From Escherichia phage OliverMaurmann_Bas86: 64,000 bases of DNA. This document shows, one piece after another, positions 49,285-54,286 of this stretch. A program made the position numbers and the translations under genes. The notes beneath the pieces are model-generated. The model ran no database searches. It was not told the origin of the DNA and saw only the letters and a list, made by a program, of their open reading frames with translations. Numbering within the stretch: the stretch's first letter is position 1; each line of letters begins with the position of its first letter. The stretch lies in sequence record PQ850622.1; one strand, 5' to 3'.

Positions 49285-49525
49285 ACAACCTCTTCTTTGA
49301 ACTTAAAAAAGGACTCTCATAAGAGAGCCAAGCTTTAAGGCCAATTAAATAGATATCACCCAATATCTGTGGATAACCTGCTCTTAAAATATTCTATCCG
49401 ACGGATGTTCGAGGATTATTCCTCTCCCTAGCATCGGCCCCATACGGGAAAGATTAAATTAAGATTAGGTTAGTTGAGCCAGAATAGCTCACATAGCCCT
49501 CTGATACTCACGAGGGCTATAGATG

Positions 49526-49777
49526 TTACTCTGTATCTCCGTCGAAGCGGAGGATTGCTGTCGGAACAGGAATAACTGCCATGTCAATCTCTAAACGGAA
49601 GAGATGACCTGTGCTCAACTGAACTGCTGTTACCGGCTTAGCGATACCAGCAACAGAGGCAGAAGGGATTCGGATAAAGAATTCCCCCGGATATTCAACC
49701 GAACGAAACACATCTCCCGGTGTCATATCTTTTACTTGAACAGTAGGCTCAGGAGGTGTTTTATTGGAAATTTGCAT
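49526..49777 (-). CDS. small protein, PGDVFR paralog family
   Basis: MTPGDVFRSVEYPGEFFIRI ... HLFRLEIDMAVIPVP. Confidence 0.4.
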   Translation of the reverse strand: MQISNKTPPEPTVQVKDMTPGDVFRSVEYPGEFFIRIPSASVAGIAKPVTAVQLSTGHLFRLEIDMAVIPVPTAILRFDGDTE

Positions 49778-50010
49778 TACAAACCTTTCTTAGCACGATC
49801 TTTGGCAGTCTTGCCAGTGCGAATACGGTGGGAAACATTAACCAGTTCGCCGCCTTCGACGATGGTTACGCTTTTATTTTTCGCAATATCGAATACAGTC
49901 TTCTCTGTACCGCCCAGACGAATCTGTTTAGGTTCGCTGTGGGTCTGAGTTGATTTAGACTGGAACTGGAACGGCTGACGGATGGCATCAATTGCGCTAA
50001 CTTTAGACAT
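49777..50010 (-). CDS. hypothetical protein
   Basis: 77 aa ORF. Confidence 0.3.
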   Translation of the reverse strand: MSKVSAIDAIRQPFQFQSKSTQTHSEPKQIRLGGTEKTVFDIAKNKSVTIVEGGELVNVSHRIRTGKTAKDRAKKGL

Positions 50011-50037
50011 GCTTTATTACCTTACATTAAAGAGAGA

Positions 50038-50466
50038 TTAAACAACAAATTGGAACGCTTCGTATCCAAACTTGTATGAGAAGTCATGCTTGAATTTCAC
50101 TACACGACCACGATCACGGAAAGATTTCAGACGACTAATAAAGCCAGCCATCGGCTCAGGGTCAATAGGGCTACGAATCTTCATAGCTACAGAGTGCAGC
50201 TTGAAGCGTTTACCAGTGCTACAGGCCATCATCACATACTCCATACGAGTAGTCCAGATGTTGAGCACCATGCTTGTTTTCTCCGCTGACCAACCAGTCT
50301 TGCGGGCGATTTCTTTATGGACATTAAGCTCCAAAGGAAGAGGGAATTGCTTGTTGAATGAAGCCGGATATAGCTTGACCAGAAGGTCAATGTTTTCTTT
50401 ATACGTTAAGTAAGCCAATTTCTTGCTTACGTTAGGGAATTTCCCAGACATTTTTTGAAGCTCCAA
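50038..50466 (-). CDS. ProQ/FinO-domain-like RNA-binding protein candidate
   Basis: KLAYLTYKENIDLLVKLYPASFNKQFPLPLELNVHKEIARKTGWSAEKTSMVLNIWTTRMEYV resembles the ProQ/FinO pattern. Confidence 0.35.
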   Translation of the reverse strand: MELQKMSGKFPNVSKKLAYLTYKENIDLLVKLYPASFNKQFPLPLELNVHKEIARKTGWSAEKTSMVLNIWTTRMEYVMMACSTGKRFKLHSVAMKIRSPIDPEPMAGFISRLKSFRDRGRVVKFKHDFSYKFGYEAFQFVV

Positions 50467-50629
50467 AACAGCGCCGAAAAGAGAGGCGTCATAGTAGCTA
50501 AAGGGAGGAGAGAAGAGGGCTTATTTACTTGCCTTTTTCTGTCCGTTAATGTACCAGAGAACTGAGCCATCAGGCTGTCGCTGACCGAAGCCTTTCAGGT
50601 TAACCATTTCTTCTTCAGAGTAGGCACGT

Positions 50630-50893
50630 TTATTCACTGATCTTCTCCACTAAATCCAGAGTTGCCGATTCAAACACAACACCAACTGGCATACTAGGTG
50701 CCATATTACGAACGTATCCACTCTGCATAGACACGGCTCGAGAGTATTCAGAACCGTTAGAGCTTTTGTTTACCTTCATGTAAAGGGTTTGTTCTTTATC
50801 TTCTTTCAGAGTAAAGAAAGAGCCGGGAAGAAGCCCCTGAACAGTCAGAGGGATATCTGCAACATGAGTCTTATTGATAGTAAGAACTGTCAT
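50630..50893 (-). CDS. small protein, PGDVFR paralog family
   Basis: LLPGSFFTLKEDKEQTLYMKV. Confidence 0.35.
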   Translation of the reverse strand: MTVLTINKTHVADIPLTVQGLLPGSFFTLKEDKEQTLYMKVNKSSNGSEYSRAVSMQSGYVRNMAPSMPVGVVFESATLDLVEKISE

Positions 50894-50896
50894 TGC

Positions 50897-51151
50897 TTAT
50901 TCCTTAATAGTTGCTTCAGCTTTAATAGGAATAACAGCAACATCTTTACGAGGTGCTGTCGCTCGGCCCGTATTAAGACAGGCTACAAGTCTGTGCTCAT
51001 CCGCACCCTTAATACAGAGTCGAGTAGAGAACTCGGTAGACAATAAGATGTACAAATCATCATCTTCACTATTAGGGAACATGAAGCAATCCCCGAGTCG
51101 TAAAGCACTGAGAGGTATTGCATTCTTACCTGCTGGTTTGTTAACTTTCAT
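50897..51151 (-). CDS. small protein, PGDVFR paralog family
   Basis: LSALRLGDCFMFPNSEDDDLYILL ... VAVIPIKAE. Confidence 0.4.
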   Translation of the reverse strand: MKVNKPAGKNAIPLSALRLGDCFMFPNSEDDDLYILLSTEFSTRLCIKGADEHRLVACLNTGRATAPRKDVAVIPIKAEATIKE

Positions 51152-51427
51152 TTAACCACCTTTAGTTATGGACCGATTTATGAGAGAACTCTTGGAAGAA
51201 TGCTTTCATAAATAGGGGGAGGGGACGAATCCTCCCATATCCTATTAATTAATATTGCATGTAAGATCTAACAATTCGATGCTGTAGTGGATAGCGTAAA
51301 ACGCTTACCGGCATTAAACCCAGCCCATGAGGGGCTTATGTGAATAAAATGCTCAACATTGAGCGGTTAGTTGATAGGAGATCTGAAGTCCTATCTCAAA
51401 GGACTCTCGTAAGAATCCTTCACGATA

Positions 51428-51694
51428 TTACTTAGTAACAAAGACTGTCACCTTATCCATTACCCAGCCTATCAACATAAGTAAAGGTAAGAAGAGGATA
51501 AAGATCAGCATAAAAGGCCAGAAGAATATCACCGTCCAAATAGAGTATTCATCAGGCTTACCACTCCACGAGGAATGGAAGAAGTTGTAGAGTGTATTGG
51601 TTTTGAAGCACCACTTAACTACAATGGCTGCCAACCACCAACCAATAACATAAATCAGGAGGACATACGCTGCTGTAACCATTGACCGTTCCAT
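51428..51694 (-). CDS. small membrane protein
   Basis: Two hydrophobic segments. Confidence 0.35.
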   Translation of the reverse strand: MERSMVTAAYVLLIYVIGWWLAAIVVKWCFKTNTLYNFFHSSWSGKPDEYSIWTVIFFWPFMLIFILFLPLLMLIGWVMDKVTVFVTK

Positions 51695-51910
51695 TGATAG
51701 TTGCGAGTGACCACGTTTCCGTGGATAAGAAAGTGCTGTCGACGAAGGGTATCTTTAACGTTGTAATAGGCAGCGTTTCCAAGATGGCCTTCTTTGATAA
51801 GCCAACGCAGGTTGCGAATACCAACTAACAACATAAGTACTTGTTGCTTGTATGAAGTTTGAGCTGCTGTTTCAAGTAGAGCTTTCGTATCAGAATAATG
51901 ACCGGACATA

Positions 51911-52862: not shown

Positions 52863-52871
52863 AATGATTCC

Positions 52872-53018
52872 TTAGATTATGTCACGACGACTAACTTCAC
52901 CACACACCTTACACTGGATAACGTAACGTACGCCCCTTGCATCTCCACAGATCAGCGGACGGGTGTCGATAATCTTCCAATCATGACAATGGAAGACACG
53001 CTTTAGCCACTTAATCAT
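52872..53018 (-). CDS. small zinc-ribbon protein (48 aa, below ORF-track cutoff)
   Basis: Hand-translated MIKWLKRVFHCHDWKIIDTRPLICGDARGVRYVIQCKVCGEVSRRDII. Confidence 0.35.
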   Translation of the reverse strand: MIKWLKRVFHCHDWKIIDTRPLICGDARGVRYVIQCKVCGEVSRRDII

Positions 53019-53019
53019 A

Positions 53020-53277
53020 TTAAGCACACGCCGGTAGTTCAATTAACTGAGGAGTACGACAAGGACCGTCTTCATACACACCAACCAACGTTGGCATGTA
53101 AGGCCCAGCGCACTGGTATTCGTCGAACAGTTCATTGTAAGTAGGCTTCCACTTCCAAGCCCACACATAACCCATTCGGTCAATGGCAATGTAACGAGTG
53201 TTCAGAGGAACTTGCATCATTACATCACCAACTGCTATTACTTTCGTAATAACTGCTGCTCGGAAGTTTGTCTTCAT
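53020..53277 (-). CDS. hypothetical protein
   Basis: 85 aa ORF. Confidence 0.3.
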   Translation of the reverse strand: MKTNFRAAVITKVIAVGDVMMQVPLNTRYIAIDRMGYVWAWKWKPTYNELFDEYQCAGPYMPTLVGVYEDGPCRTPQLIELPACA

Positions 53278-53525
53278 GGTGATTTAATCTCAATCTGAAC
53301 ATTGACAACAAATACAGTATGGTTTGCACTGTACACCGAAGTGCCGATGATTGGCTTATCATCACTGAGGATTTCAACAGCGTGATCGAGGTTGATCTTC
53401 AGATGAAGACGACCTGATTCCATGAAGAAATCACCAGCACGTATCTCACCGAACTTAGCTGGCACACCGATAGAAGGTATCAGTATGTCAGTGCGACCTT
53501 TACGGTCAAATAAACGATTGAACAT
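53274..53525 (-). CDS. hypothetical protein (possibly distant PGDVFR family member)
   Basis: Start at internal Met: MFNRLFDRK...KFGEIRAGDFFMESGRLHLKIN. Confidence 0.3.
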   Translation of the reverse strand: MFNRLFDRKGRTDILIPSIGVPAKFGEIRAGDFFMESGRLHLKINLDHAVEILSDDKPIIGTSVYSANHTVFVVNVQIEIKSP

Positions 53526-53573
53526 ATCAACCTCTCTTGTTAGTTTAAGTAAGAGTTGTCCCTTAATTAAAAC

Positions 53574-53600
53574 AACAAAGGCCACCCCGAAGGGCAGCCC
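53574..53600 (-). terminator. rho-independent terminator (reverse strand)
   Basis: On - strand GGCUGCCC-UUCG-GGGUGGCC followed by UUUGUUGUUUU. Confidence 0.5.
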
Positions 53601-53608
53601 ATTATTAA

Positions 53609-53749
53609 TTATCCACCGTAGAACCAATCACCTTGACGCTTACGGATGTTAGTTGTCAGACGAAGCATGGCAGACTCAATCTTCAGAGCACCATTTGCTA
53701 CTGCATCCATACGTTCAGGACGGTTCATACGTTTGGTTGTCTTCTTCAT
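53609..53749 (-). CDS. small basic protein
   Basis: Internal start MKKTTKRMNRPERMD... of ORF 53609..53884. Confidence 0.25.
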   Translation of the reverse strand: MKKTTKRMNRPERMDAVANGALKIESAMLRLTTNIRKRQGDWFYGG

Positions 53750-54055
53750 ATCGTTCTCTCTTTGTTGGTGGAGGCAGGTTTGCCAGTTAATATAAAGGGA
53801 AGCCCTACACGTTAAGGCTTCCGCTTGTACAAACTGTCGAGAACTCTCTACCCCTAGATTGTTCTCTATCCCAAACCGATACATACCCCTACATATCGGA
53901 AAGCTGTTCGAAAATTAACAGGTTTTAGTCTATCACCGGATGTTTGAGACAAGTCTCGCCCTAGCGGTGAGCCATATGGCGTTGAGATTATAGTTAATTG
54001 AGGAACACCCTCACATAGCCCTCTGATAGACACAAGGGCTATAAGTCGATGTTAC

Positions 54056-54286
54056 TTAACCATTGATATGAGTTACTTGAACATCAGGTACAGGGATAAC
54101 TTCATGGTCTTCCTGTAATTGGAACAGTGTCCCCTGACTAAGACCAACCACACGATGCATATCGTTAAGTCTAGTGTCTGTCTTTAGGTAGACATTTTCA
54201 GAGTTAGTTGGTAAACGGAACACATCGCCCGGACGTAACTCACTGAGCTTTTTAGTAACAACTACAGAGAAGAGATTAATTTTCAT
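54056..54286 (-). CDS. small protein, PGDVFR paralog family
   Basis: LSELRPGDVFRLPTNSENVYLKT ... TLFQLQEDHEVIPVP. Confidence 0.4.
   Translation of the reverse strand: MKINLFSVVVTKKLSELRPGDVFRLPTNSENVYLKTDTRLNDMHRVVGLSQGTLFQLQEDHEVIPVPDVQVTHING

Follow-up and report, generated by a model that had tools for sequence, protein, structure and literature searches.

The early gene region of phiEco32-like coliphages contains a conserved, folded non-coding RNA cassette of about 240 bases, in two to three copies per phage. The 45-bp repeat flagged in an earlier note on this DNA is the apical hairpin (H1) of this structured intergenic cassette together with part of its basal stem. One copy, IG3, carries a segment complementary to the mRNA leader of Escherichia coli nrdD, the anaerobic ribonucleotide reductase gene. 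At about even odds (a probability near 0.5), we read IG3 as a scaffolded, terminator-ended phage regulatory RNA that would act in trans on host nrdD, a proposal drawn from sequence comparison.

The window (the whole 64-kb stretch that was analysed) comes from a phiEco32-like podophage with 95% identity to Bas87. All genes of the region lie on the minus strand. Coordinates are collected in Table 1.

Table 1. Positions of the RNA cassettes, their parts and the neighbouring small genes in the window
Feature	Coordinates	Strand	Description
Paralog A	49526..49777	(-)	83 aa, SH3-like small beta-barrel family; blastp, PHROG profiles, HMM
Paralog B	50630..50893	(-)	87 aa; membership by profile only
Paralog C	50897..51151	(-)	84 aa; blastp, PHROG profiles, HMM
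Paralog D	54056..54286	(-)	76 aa; blastp, PHROG profiles, HMM, AF2; followed by IG1
Candidate fifth paralog	53274..53525	(-)	HMM 5.5 bits, hhalign 92%/30 columns, pLDDT 41
IG1 RNA cassette	53798..54056	(-)	Downstream of D
IG2 diverged third cassette	51152..51427	(-)	Shared AGUAAUAUC, long hairpin, UCAACUAACC
IG3 RNA cassette	49296..49532	(-)	Reaches from the A stop codon to the intrinsic terminator; shared by coliphages and Salmonella 7-11-like phages
IG3 5' domain (flagged element)	49475..49531	(-)	Basal stem GAGUAAC/GUUAUUC, H1, H2
Hairpin H1	49492-49521	(-)	UAUAGCCCUC...GAGGGCUAUG
Hairpin H2	49475-49491	(-)	UGAGCUA-UUC-UGGCUCA; mutually exclusive alternative
Hairpin H4/H5	49397..49437	(-)	7x7 internal loop CUAGGGn / nAACAUC
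nrdD-complementary segment	49359..49392	(-)	As RNA, complementary to E. coli nrdD mRNA leader
IG3 intrinsic terminator	49306..49329	(-)	GGCUCUC-UUAU-GAGAGUCC, then U6

A folded RNA cassette around the repeat

The earlier note described a near-identical element of about 45 bp behind two paralogous genes. The near-identity stands: the 17-mer CACATAGCCCTCTGATA has two exact occurrences (49490 and 54012), one downstream of A and one downstream of D, and the two 34-nt repeats share 91% identity; in a control, none of 100 shuffles gave at least three matches at three mismatches or fewer. The element is not self-contained, as the similarity between IG1 and IG3 runs about 150 nt past the hairpin, and the hairpin itself has a stem of 9-10 bp rather than the 8 bp given for it. 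The view that it is no generic terminator was correct, since no U-run follows the element on either strand and the real intrinsic terminator comes about 200 nt past the first helix, directly before the next ribosome-binding site. Likewise, the conservation beyond the stem, taken as a sequence-specific signal, is borne out at the RNA level.

The cassettes are 235-260 nt long, and the element starts at the stop codon of A or D or adjoins it; the UAA of A (49526-49528) sits within the IG3 basal stem. Their multi-branched core includes the hairpin H4/H5, in which 6+5 bp flank a 7x7 loop that is invariant in all copies except for one stem-adjacent nucleotide per strand, and both stems covary. In H1 the stem sequence is invariant, and the loop differs in both sequence and length. 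Towards its 3' end, IG3 runs from the antisense segment through an A/U-rich stretch to the terminator hairpin and U6; this terminator is kept in 9/9 aligned phages and is annotated as such in SU7 and 7-11. Two copies are clear (IG1 and IG3, only ~60-78% alike) and one is degenerate. The IG1 scaffold (53909-54054) is a covariance-model match of 57.8 bits; beyond it come further hairpins, whose loops are GGGG, and one at 53798-53822 that resembles a terminator. IG2 went undetected by the covariance model, and has AGUAAUAUC at the stop codon, a long hairpin in which the stop codon is embedded, and UCAACUAACC.

The fold is supported by comparison between phages. RNAalifold on nine IG3 orthologs gave 62 pairs with 98% of cells paired, and double changes at 14 pairs, where shuffling gave 6.6+/-1.6 (none of 500 shuffles came to 14; slid controls gave 4 at most). 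The covariance model R1, trained on IG3 alone, recovers IG1 at full length in every coliphage locus (48-58 bits, E 1e-9 to 1e-12). In the joint alignment of 21 sequences 95% of cells are paired, with 24 double-change pairs against 15.5+/-1.8 and a covariation score of 0.376 against 0.143, most covariation events dividing just two or three lineages. The alignment has 60 G-U cells, and pairing amounts to 95.0% on the coding strand versus 88.6% on the opposite one. Basal stem and H2 are alternative folds only 0.1-4.1 kcal/mol apart: for a U>C change in EP335 the basal stem carries the compensating change and H2 is improved, and the window's own U>C change is compensated in H2. Compensatory changes and G-U pairs together indicate that selection acts on RNA pairing. 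No Rfam family matches the cassette.

The earlier suggestion to look for the element elsewhere in the genome and in related phages proved fruitful: about 100 coliphages share the conserved cassette, and so do Salmonella 7-11-like phages. The gene neighbours of the cassettes vary from phage to phage; the cassettes form islands of 77-85% DNA identity amid mosaic gene blocks, in which the paralog genes are unalignable. This setting would suit a role in recombination, the cassettes being linkers or scars of duplication in the manner of T4 PeSL cassettes or module boundary sequences, retained for shuffling the variable small open reading frames and devoid of RNA function. We regard this as very improbable, because compensatory changes and G-U pairs reveal selection on pairing, the copies are too diverged for efficient homologous exchange, and a sigma-70 promoter with stem-loop, as in PeSL, is missing. 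The duplication junction considered in the earlier note is likewise not supported as a function: the two copies diverged long ago as paralogs, and about 100 phages have kept them separate, with compensatory base changes.

The cassettes are transcribed within the minus-strand early polycistronic mRNA, and no promoter was found inside them. They could be imagined as cis-acting elements of the early transcript that govern their own 3' terminator, the nrdD similarity being secondary, either by processive antitermination (like HK022 put, or like nut with a phage protein) or by translation-coupled attenuation through the basal-stem/H2 switch. A terminator-like hairpin ends every cassette, and no promoter was found between cassettes and downstream genes, so read-through is required; Lavysh et al. 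2022 (PMC8948821) state that phage 7-11 must antiterminate by a strategy that is undefined. Moreover, the basal stem includes the stop codon, both mutually exclusive helices are kept by covariation, and the invariant internal loop is a plausible contact for a factor or RNA polymerase. On the other hand, the cassettes resemble neither put nor any family in Rfam, we found no conserved alternative pairing between scaffold and terminator stem (a GAGAG/CUCUC pairing fails in sequences with C), GAP52 manages without the cassette, and 32/34 identity to one host locus is left unexplained. We consider this cis-acting role possible, although doubtful.

A further proposal, of which the earlier note named the RNA processing site, is that of mRNA processing or stability elements in the manner of the RNase III sites that separate early genes in T7. 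The early polycistronic RNA would be cut into segments there, with 3' hairpins left behind to protect the upstream message. The intergenic location in the early operon, the start at stop codons and the hairpins with conserved internal loops agree with it; against this, H4/H5 is short for RNase III and H1 varies in its loop while its stem sequence is invariant. As an explanation of the cassettes, processing seems to us improbable, even if it is compatible with release of a small RNA and thus does not exclude the trans-acting one.

The small proteins beside the cassettes

The genes A-D encode one expanded family of early proteins of about 80 aa with an SH3-like beta-barrel. As the earlier note had claimed, at least four genes are paralogous: pairwise blastp joins A with D (31.6 bits) and C with D (27.3 bits), the PHROG profiles of A, B, C and D match one another, and an iterated HMM search of all open reading frames in the window and eight related loci collected 50 members. 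Pairwise and profile alignment, the check proposed there, thus joined the four into one family. In the 64-kb window the family HMM finds A, B, C and D and no others, at 58-67 bits. The shared motif holds for the family and not to the letter in B, where the literal PGDVFR and VIPV strings are absent and profile membership is clear. In the AF2 model of D (pLDDT 80.7), five strands form a small beta barrel. The gene at 53274-53525, listed in the earlier note as a possible fifth, is an unproven and at most remote relative, with just 5.5 bits against the family HMM, an hhalign probability of 92% over 30 N-terminal columns and an unusable AF2 model (pLDDT 41).

The tie of these proteins to the repeated element is one of position only. 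The similarity between IG1 and IG3 starts only at the stop codon, and in phage LAMP the same cassettes are placed after unrelated genes.

Complementarity to the host nrdD leader

The IG3 segment matches the E. coli nrdD 5' leader at 32/34 positions in two genomes, and a 29/31 match occurs at one site per genome in 5423/5426 E. coli genomes. The match is present in about 97 phiEco32-like coliphage records and reaches 34/37 in Kuraviruses. IG1 and IG2, which serve as an internal control, gave no match to E. coli at E<=10. The coliphage match is longer to E. coli than to Salmonella, Citrobacter or Klebsiella; the Salmonella phages keep 17-24 nt of it with no clear preference for the Salmonella leader, and pSal-SNUABM-01 matches the E. 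coli leader slightly better. The orientation is such that the phage transcript is antisense to nrdD mRNA. The matched stretch spans a predicted anti-Shine-Dalgarno segment and ends just 5' of the nrdD Shine-Dalgarno sequence (SD), beside which lies the host block CTGTGGATAACCTGTTCTT, conserved throughout the Enterobacteriaceae.

The matched segment also contains TTATCCACA (49368-49376), the sole perfect DnaA-box 9-mer in the window, invariant in all aligned phages. The block around it might thus be a DNA-level site that mimics nrdD leader DNA and binds DnaA, with or without another host factor; its purpose could be to start phage replication, to titrate DnaA or to block transcription before the terminator. 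Conservation in Salmonella phages stops exactly at the end of the 9-mer, and nrdD leaders retain this box out to Serratia and Edwardsiella. Nevertheless, DnaA requires 9 bp, not the 31-37 that are matched; there is one box, with neither a cluster nor an adjacent unwinding element, the lone near-match (49277-49285) is not conserved, and GC skew shows no inflection at the IG3 region. In addition, part of the box forms the 3' side of an RNA helix that covaries, and the transition differences (3/3) are compatible with G-U pairing in the duplex of phage RNA and mRNA. A DNA-level site is consequently a rather unlikely explanation.

We favour a regulatory RNA acting in trans. In line with this, phage GAP52, in which the cassette is absent, encodes an NrdD and an NrdG of its own. 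According to RNAfold of the nrdD leader, with its transcription start inferred from a TATAAT, the SD has an unpaired probability of 0.01 and is paired to UGUUCU within the target, and the predicted 34-mer duplex reaches -51 kcal/mol; in the phage RNA itself, helices 2 and 3 hide roughly half of the antisense stretch. The 3' portion of IG3 may behave as a trans-acting small RNA derived from a 3'UTR or intergenic region, and since no promoter was found inside the cassettes, a discrete small RNA would require processing. Its pairing with the nrdD leader would alter nrdD translation, probably by freeing the SD and activating translation in an anti-antisense mechanism, and this could raise dNTP supply in anaerobic infection. 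Alternatively, nrdD could be repressed, as the duplex would reach right up to the SD. From the features above we infer accumulation of a discrete IG3 RNA, its in vivo pairing with nrdD mRNA and the sign of its effect. The shared 5' scaffold may have a part in processing or stability, bind a factor or act as a switch coupled to translation. As IG1 has the same scaffold and no detectable host target, the nrdD model leaves the scaffold's own role unexplained.

Comparison with known systems

Proteins A-D resemble the SH3-like early phage proteins of PHROGs 6570, 7832, 12612 and 16423, N4 gp21 and PaP3 ORF65 in size (72-90 aa), five-stranded barrel, G-D-x-F turn motif, and location in the early region with multiple copies per genome. 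To our knowledge, none of these proteins has a known function.

The cassettes share with the early RNase III signals of T7 and T3 their intergenic hairpins with conserved internal loops, conserved sequence past the stems and a place between early genes of a virulent coliphage. They differ in helices of less than two turns, a multi-branched fold and an intrinsic terminator of their own at the end. With HK022 put and lambda nut they have in common paralogous structured RNAs occurring twice in early transcription units, upstream of terminators, with stem structure more conserved than sequence. However, put consists of two stem-loops of ~70 nt, whereas the cassette has a long hairpin and a multi-branched core of ~160 nt; the cassettes do not lie just after promoters and contain no boxA/boxB.

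Phage trans-acting small RNAs such as lambda PreS on dnaN, DicF and VpdS (review PMC12197685) offer the comparison for the reading that we prefer. IG3 shares with them a short complementarity to a host mRNA leader near the ribosome-binding site, a 3' terminator hairpin with a U-tail and a putative target in the DNA-synthesis supply chain. IG3 differs by belonging to a strictly virulent podophage, by its place inside an extended early operon where no separate promoter for it was detected, by an unusually long complementarity (31-37 nt), and by a conserved 160-nt scaffold upstream that is also found in the target-less IG1. No report of a phage small RNA targeting nrdD was found in the literature searched. 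The predicted release of a sequestered SD recalls the anti-antisense activators DsrA on rpoS and GlmZ on glmS, and it is tempting to propose that a phage may in this way retune host DNA-precursor synthesis by an RNA.

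The structured RNA cassettes

The 5.2-kb region matches phiEco32-like podophages (Gordonclarkvirinae), Bas87 being the best match (95%), ahead of SU7, ECBP2 and about 100 more. Between 47 and 56 kb all genes, tRNA-Arg(UCU) among them, are on the minus strand, so "downstream" means lower coordinates and the flagged element, a 45-bp repeat, has to be read as its reverse complement. The earlier note had described this repeat, with its hairpin H1, after two members of a small-protein family and had taken it for a sequence-specific site rather than a generic terminator. Both the repeat and the family were confirmed, and H1 is indeed not an intrinsic terminator. 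Such terminators consist of a G+C-rich hairpin with a U-run directly after it in the transcribed strand; H1 is absent from the terminator scan and has no U-run, being followed by GUGAGCUAUUCUGG on the minus strand and by AGATGTTACT on the plus strand. As an interpretation, the site was only partly right: the real object is a new family of structured RNA cassettes, to which IG3 (after paralog A) and IG1 (after paralog D) belong.

An exact 17-mer of the repeat occurs in the window only at 49490 and 54012, and in a coding-strand alignment the likeness of IG3 and IG1 extends about 150 nt beyond the hairpin. The common blocks are AGUAACAUC, H1, GUGAG, CAAyUAAC, a small hairpin and GCUAGGGnGAG...CUCnAACAUCCG. 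IG2, a diverged third region, has the first and fourth of the common blocks. The intrinsic terminator of IG3, a 7-bp stem with U6, is kept in nine phages and is annotated as such in SU7 and 7-11.

Coordinates of the genes, cassettes and accompanying features
Feature	Coordinates	Strand	Basis or remark
Paralog A	49526-49777	-	small-protein gene
Paralog B	50630-50893	-	small-protein gene
Paralog C	50897-51151	-	small-protein gene
Paralog D	54056-54286	-	small-protein gene
Candidate fifth paralog	53274-53525		unproven
Small ORFs of barrel-like pattern	54283-54459; 53020-53277	-	sequence pattern
ProQ/FinO-like ORF	50038-50451	-	137 aa
tRNA-Arg(UCU)	52393-52470	-	
IG3 cassette	49296-49532		after A
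H1 of IG3	49492-49521		flagged hairpin
Antisense segment of IG3	49359-49392		
IG3 intrinsic terminator	49312-49329, then U6	-	terminator scan; about 200 nt past H1
IG1 cassette	53798-54056		after D
IG1 3' half	53798-53910	-	two further hairpins
IG2 region	51152-51427		diverged third
IG2 start hairpin	51380-51432	-	right after the stop of the 51428-51694 ORF
Promoter-like site near IG2	51451-51422		weak, 9/12
18-mer direct copies	58647-59030		spacing 231 and 135 bp

IG3 and IG1 are each kept at 80-99% in about 100 coliphages, and the IG3 core is also present in the Salmonella phages 7-11, SE131 and pSal-SNUABM-01, of a different family. When the window is compared with phiEco32, the cassettes stand out as islands of 77-85% identity, while the paralog genes fail to align. 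In phage LAMP the cassettes stand after unrelated genes, so their link with the paralogs is only positional. A degenerate pattern recovered only the same phage groups and three chance matches in IMG/VR, and likewise only these groups and chance matches in metagenomes. Cronobacter GAP52 yielded no copy, and 7-11 no second one. Matches to TCAAYTAAC or AGTAAYATC elsewhere in the window (33454, 43045, 44316 and others) fall within coding regions and were dismissed as chance. Phage 7-11 has a stretch of 711 bp without annotated gene (82134-82844 of the record; 42135-42845 of locus L024) downstream of its phi32_112 homolog, just upstream of which three annotated ORFs overlap one another; the covariance model found no cassette in this stretch.

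Single-sequence folds of IG3 and IG1 have a common architecture, with z-scores of -4.9 and -3.6. For nine IG3 orthologs RNAalifold predicted 62 pairs, with 98% of cells paired, and two-sided changes occur in 14 pairs versus 6.6+/-1.6 in shuffled alignments (0/500) and no more than 4 in slid controls. Of the five measures, four were reached by none of the 500 shuffles, and the fifth, further pair types, by 62. A covariance model built from the IG3 core alone recovered IG1 at full length in every coliphage locus (48-58 bits), and nothing besides IG1 in those loci. In a joint alignment of 21 sequences 95% of cells pair, double changes affect 24 pairs versus 15.5+/-1.8, all five measures were reached by 0/500 shuffles, and H1 with the basal stem, H3, H4 and H5 show two or three pair types each. 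Slid controls had 38-53% of cells paired versus 95-98% in the structure. Compensatory changes, as expected of a structured RNA, exceed both shuffled and slid controls, and this covariation contradicts the alternative that the cassettes are pure recombination linkers. Owing to 60 G-U cells, the fold is better on the coding strand, with 95.0% pairing versus 88.6% on the opposite one, so the folded molecule is the early transcript and not a DNA palindrome. The 7x7 internal loop of the H4/H5 hairpin, CUAGGGn/nAACAUC, is invariant in all copies except at the two positions marked n, and both flanking stems covary. No relevant Rfam 15 match was obtained at E<=1 for 47-57 kb, or at E<=10 when IG3 and IG1 were searched by themselves; the highest-scoring was STnc100 over the terminator region (19.7 bits versus a gathering score of 47). 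There is good support for the cassette as a new structured RNA motif whose internal loop is invariant, independently of the nrdD idea discussed below.

Two more hairpins with G-rich loops, AUGUAGGGGUAUG and UCUAGGGGUAGA, are conserved in the 3' half of IG1. They recall both CUAGGG in the invariant internal loop and the loop UGGGU that follows the IG3 core. In phiEco32, EP335 and Paul an insertion of 58 nt lies in this half. The hairpin at the start of IG2, GGAUUCU-UACG-AGAGUCC followed by UUUGAGAU, is closely like the IG3 terminator hairpin GGCUCUC-UUAU-GAGAGUCC and is nested in a longer stem that takes in the stop codon.

At the flagged element itself, a motif at the stop codon (GAGUAAC in IG3, AACAUC in IG1) pairs with the segment just 3' of H1 (GUUAUUC and GGUGUU, respectively) as a basal stem, and this segment can alternatively form a mutually exclusive hairpin, H2, with the few bases that follow. 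Covariation maintains both alternatives: in EP335 a U>C change comes with a compensating A>G in the basal stem and replaces G-U by G-C in H2, and in the window a U>C of its own comes with a compensating A>G in H2. The two folds differ by 0.1-4.1 kcal/mol, and the H2 fold results when the leader is masked, as by a terminating ribosome. This is suggestive of a translation-coupled switch.

Early proteins and transcription signals

The four ORFs A-D, which the earlier note had grouped by shared motifs, do constitute one family: PHROG profiles cross-hit among all four, and blastp scores are modest (A/D 31.6 bits, C/D 27.3 bits). An iterated HMM search of every ORF of the window and of eight related loci converged on 50 members, to which the 64-kb window contributes exactly A-D (58-67 bits). 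There are about 10 copies in 16 kb of phiEco32, and three to four in each 16-kb locus of Salmonella 7-11-like phages. A profile search of 1.84 billion representatives yielded 179 clusters at 50% identity, nearly all of 70-90 aa with a few tandem doubles. For D, AF2 gave a small beta barrel of five strands (pLDDT 80.7), and its structural matches to SH3-like domains assign the paralogs to the SH3-like small beta-barrel fold. Among viral models, the nearest are exclusively uncharacterised early proteins such as N4 gp21. No applicable Pfam family was found, and the paralogs represent a large uncharacterised set of early SH3-like proteins. The fifth ORF offered as a possible member is an unproven candidate, with 5.5 bits to the family HMM, an hhalign probability of 92% over 30 N-terminal columns and a structure model too poor for use. 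Two neighbouring small ORFs have a small beta-barrel (KOW/SH3-like) look by sequence pattern but, at 0.3 and -1.2 bits, fail to score with the family HMM.

In the same operon, another ORF matches Pfam ProQ/FinO (E=1e-5, 25.9 bits, cut-off 27). Its tblastn matches come from the Suseptimavirus clade, 7-11-like Salmonella phages (31% identity) and Erwinia phiEa21-4-like phages, whose homologue is annotated as proQ/RNA chaperone; Kuraviruses such as phiEco32 lack it. In some lineages the protein may act on cassette RNAs as a phage-encoded RNA chaperone; coupling of the cassettes to it was rejected because the gene is missing in Kuraviruses that keep both cassettes.

The consensus promoter scan detected no promoter-like site in IG1 or IG3, and such sites are fewer than in shuffles (5 versus 13.8). 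The promoter consensus of the phiEco32 sigma factor gp36, tAATGTAtA (PMC8948821), is also absent from the cassettes. Near the upstream end of the early region, the 18-mer TAAATTGTTAAAGAGCGG is present in three direct copies (two exact, one 83%), which may be promoter or operator repeats. It is attractive to regard the cassettes as cis-acting read-through or attenuation elements: each is followed by a terminator, no promoter was found downstream, and they lie exactly where the undefined antitermination strategy that Lavysh et al. 2022 expect in 7-11 must operate (PMC8948821). However, no antiterminator pairing proved to be conserved, and the cassettes do not resemble put. A riboswitch-like pairing of the internal-loop GAGAG with the terminator CUCUC was discarded as not conserved, since half of the sequences have C there.

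Complementarity to the host nrdD leader

A perfect, invariant TTATCCACA was seen in IG3, and this cassette was searched against 5426 complete E. coli genomes. It matches one locus, the 5' leader of nrdD (anaerobic ribonucleotide reductase), over 32/34 nt; a 51-nt query matches a single site (29/31) in 5423 of the 5426 genomes. Kuraviruses reach 34/37, and the match is present in about 97 coliphage records. IG1 and IG2, of like size and composition, have no E. coli match at E<=10. The RNA-sense strand of the phage is the strand antisense to nrdD, and thus the early transcript is complementary to nrdD mRNA. The match is striking and orientation-specific. In IG3 the complementarity covers -43 to -10 relative to the AUG, UCCACAGAUAUUGGG being a stretch within the proposed pairing; across phages it amounts to 29/31 to 34/37 nt and ends 10-14 nt before the AUG. 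The coliphage match to E. coli is longer than to Salmonella, Citrobacter or Klebsiella leaders, and all three observed transition differences are wobble-compatible in an RNA duplex. Salmonella phages keep just 17-24 nt, with no clear host preference; the single Salmonella leader compared came from AGRM01000005.1, a 501-kb chromosomal contig of Salmonella enterica subsp. houtenae filed among phage records. Phage and host were compared by ungapped match counts instead of RNAduplex, which was uninformative for full-length RNAs (-77 versus -68.6+/-5.4 in shuffles). GAP52, in which the cassette is missing, encodes its own NrdD/NrdG.

On the host side, the block CTGTGGATAACCTGTTCTT is conserved in Enterobacteriaceae directly 5' of the nrdD Shine-Dalgarno sequence (SD), and comprises a DnaA-box 9-mer and a segment predicted to act as anti-SD by pairing with GGAG(C/U)G; no description of it was found in the literature searched. 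The block lies at positions ~420-500 of loci L058-L137, and the E. coli leader (L057, 2992-3130) has a second TTATCCACA about 78 nt upstream. When this leader was folded from the start site inferred from TATAAT, the SD had an unpaired probability of 0.01. Since its partner UGUUCU falls inside the phage-complementary segment, pairing with IG3 (computed at -51 kcal/mol for the 34-mer duplex) would be expected to free the SD; the pairing could possibly act as steric repression of nrdD instead.

The match could also possibly reflect a DnaA site at the DNA level, but it contains a single perfect box, is far longer than 9 bp and comes with no skew signal. DnaA origins have several DnaA boxes and an AT-rich unwinding element. 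A DnaA-dependent origin or box cluster was rejected, the neighbouring one-mismatch box not being conserved; one-mismatch boxes across the window are at chance (23 versus 18.5), and GC skew, with no inflection, gave no support for a replication origin at the locus. We also discarded a CsrA sponge, as GGA motifs are too few and are lost in C variants, and a hammerhead-like reading of the plus-strand CUGAUAC, which lacks the core.

Proposed model and comparison with known systems

It is tempting to propose a joint reading, to which we give a probability of roughly one in three. Between their early genes, virulent phiEco32-like phages would carry scaffolded regulatory RNAs that form a modular family not described before. 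IG3 would be the host nrdD leader captured in antisense, and its RNA would pair with the anti-SD segment and turn on translation of the anaerobic ribonucleotide reductase, so that a gut phage would gain an RNA-based boost of dNTP supply without its own nrdDG. The shared 5' scaffold would be bistable, sensing translation of the upstream ORF and/or directing processing, and IG1 would be a second RNA of the family and would have a target too. The trans-acting mechanism is a well-motivated inference. A role as RNase III-type processing elements would be compatible with this model.

Neither phiEco32 nor nrd genes appear in a 2025 review of phage sRNAs (PMC12197685), and in the papers searched nothing relevant was found on Kuravirus RNA-seq or on nrdD and sRNA. 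If the model is true, the phages shown or proposed to reprogram host mRNAs through base-pairing, so far few, would be joined by a strictly lytic coliphage group that includes the BASEL phages Bas87-Bas94 and therapy candidates. Anaerobic dNTP synthesis as the target would be ecologically sensible in the gut, and an unrecognised translational control hairpin would be revealed in the enterobacterial nrdD leader.

HK022 put is a pair of neighbouring stem-loops (about 70 nt) that lies after an early promoter and makes RNA polymerase terminator-resistant; the cassettes differ from it in architecture, and no promoter was found near them. In T4, PeSL elements couple an early sigma-70 promoter to a stem-loop and flank variable ORFs, whereas IG1 and IG3 are without a promoter-like site. 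IG3 has two features of trans-acting base-pairing sRNAs of the Hfq type that derive from 3'UTRs or intergenic regions: extended complementarity near the nrdD translation initiation region and, at its 3' end, a Rho-independent terminator whose U-tail has at least 6 residues. A discrete RNA would arise from a promoter of its own or by processing, and the consensus scan found no promoter. Its order of antisense segment, A/U-rich stretch, terminator and U6 resembles the body of 3'UTR-derived sRNAs, and the predicted release of the SD is as with DsrA on rpoS or GlmZ on glmS.
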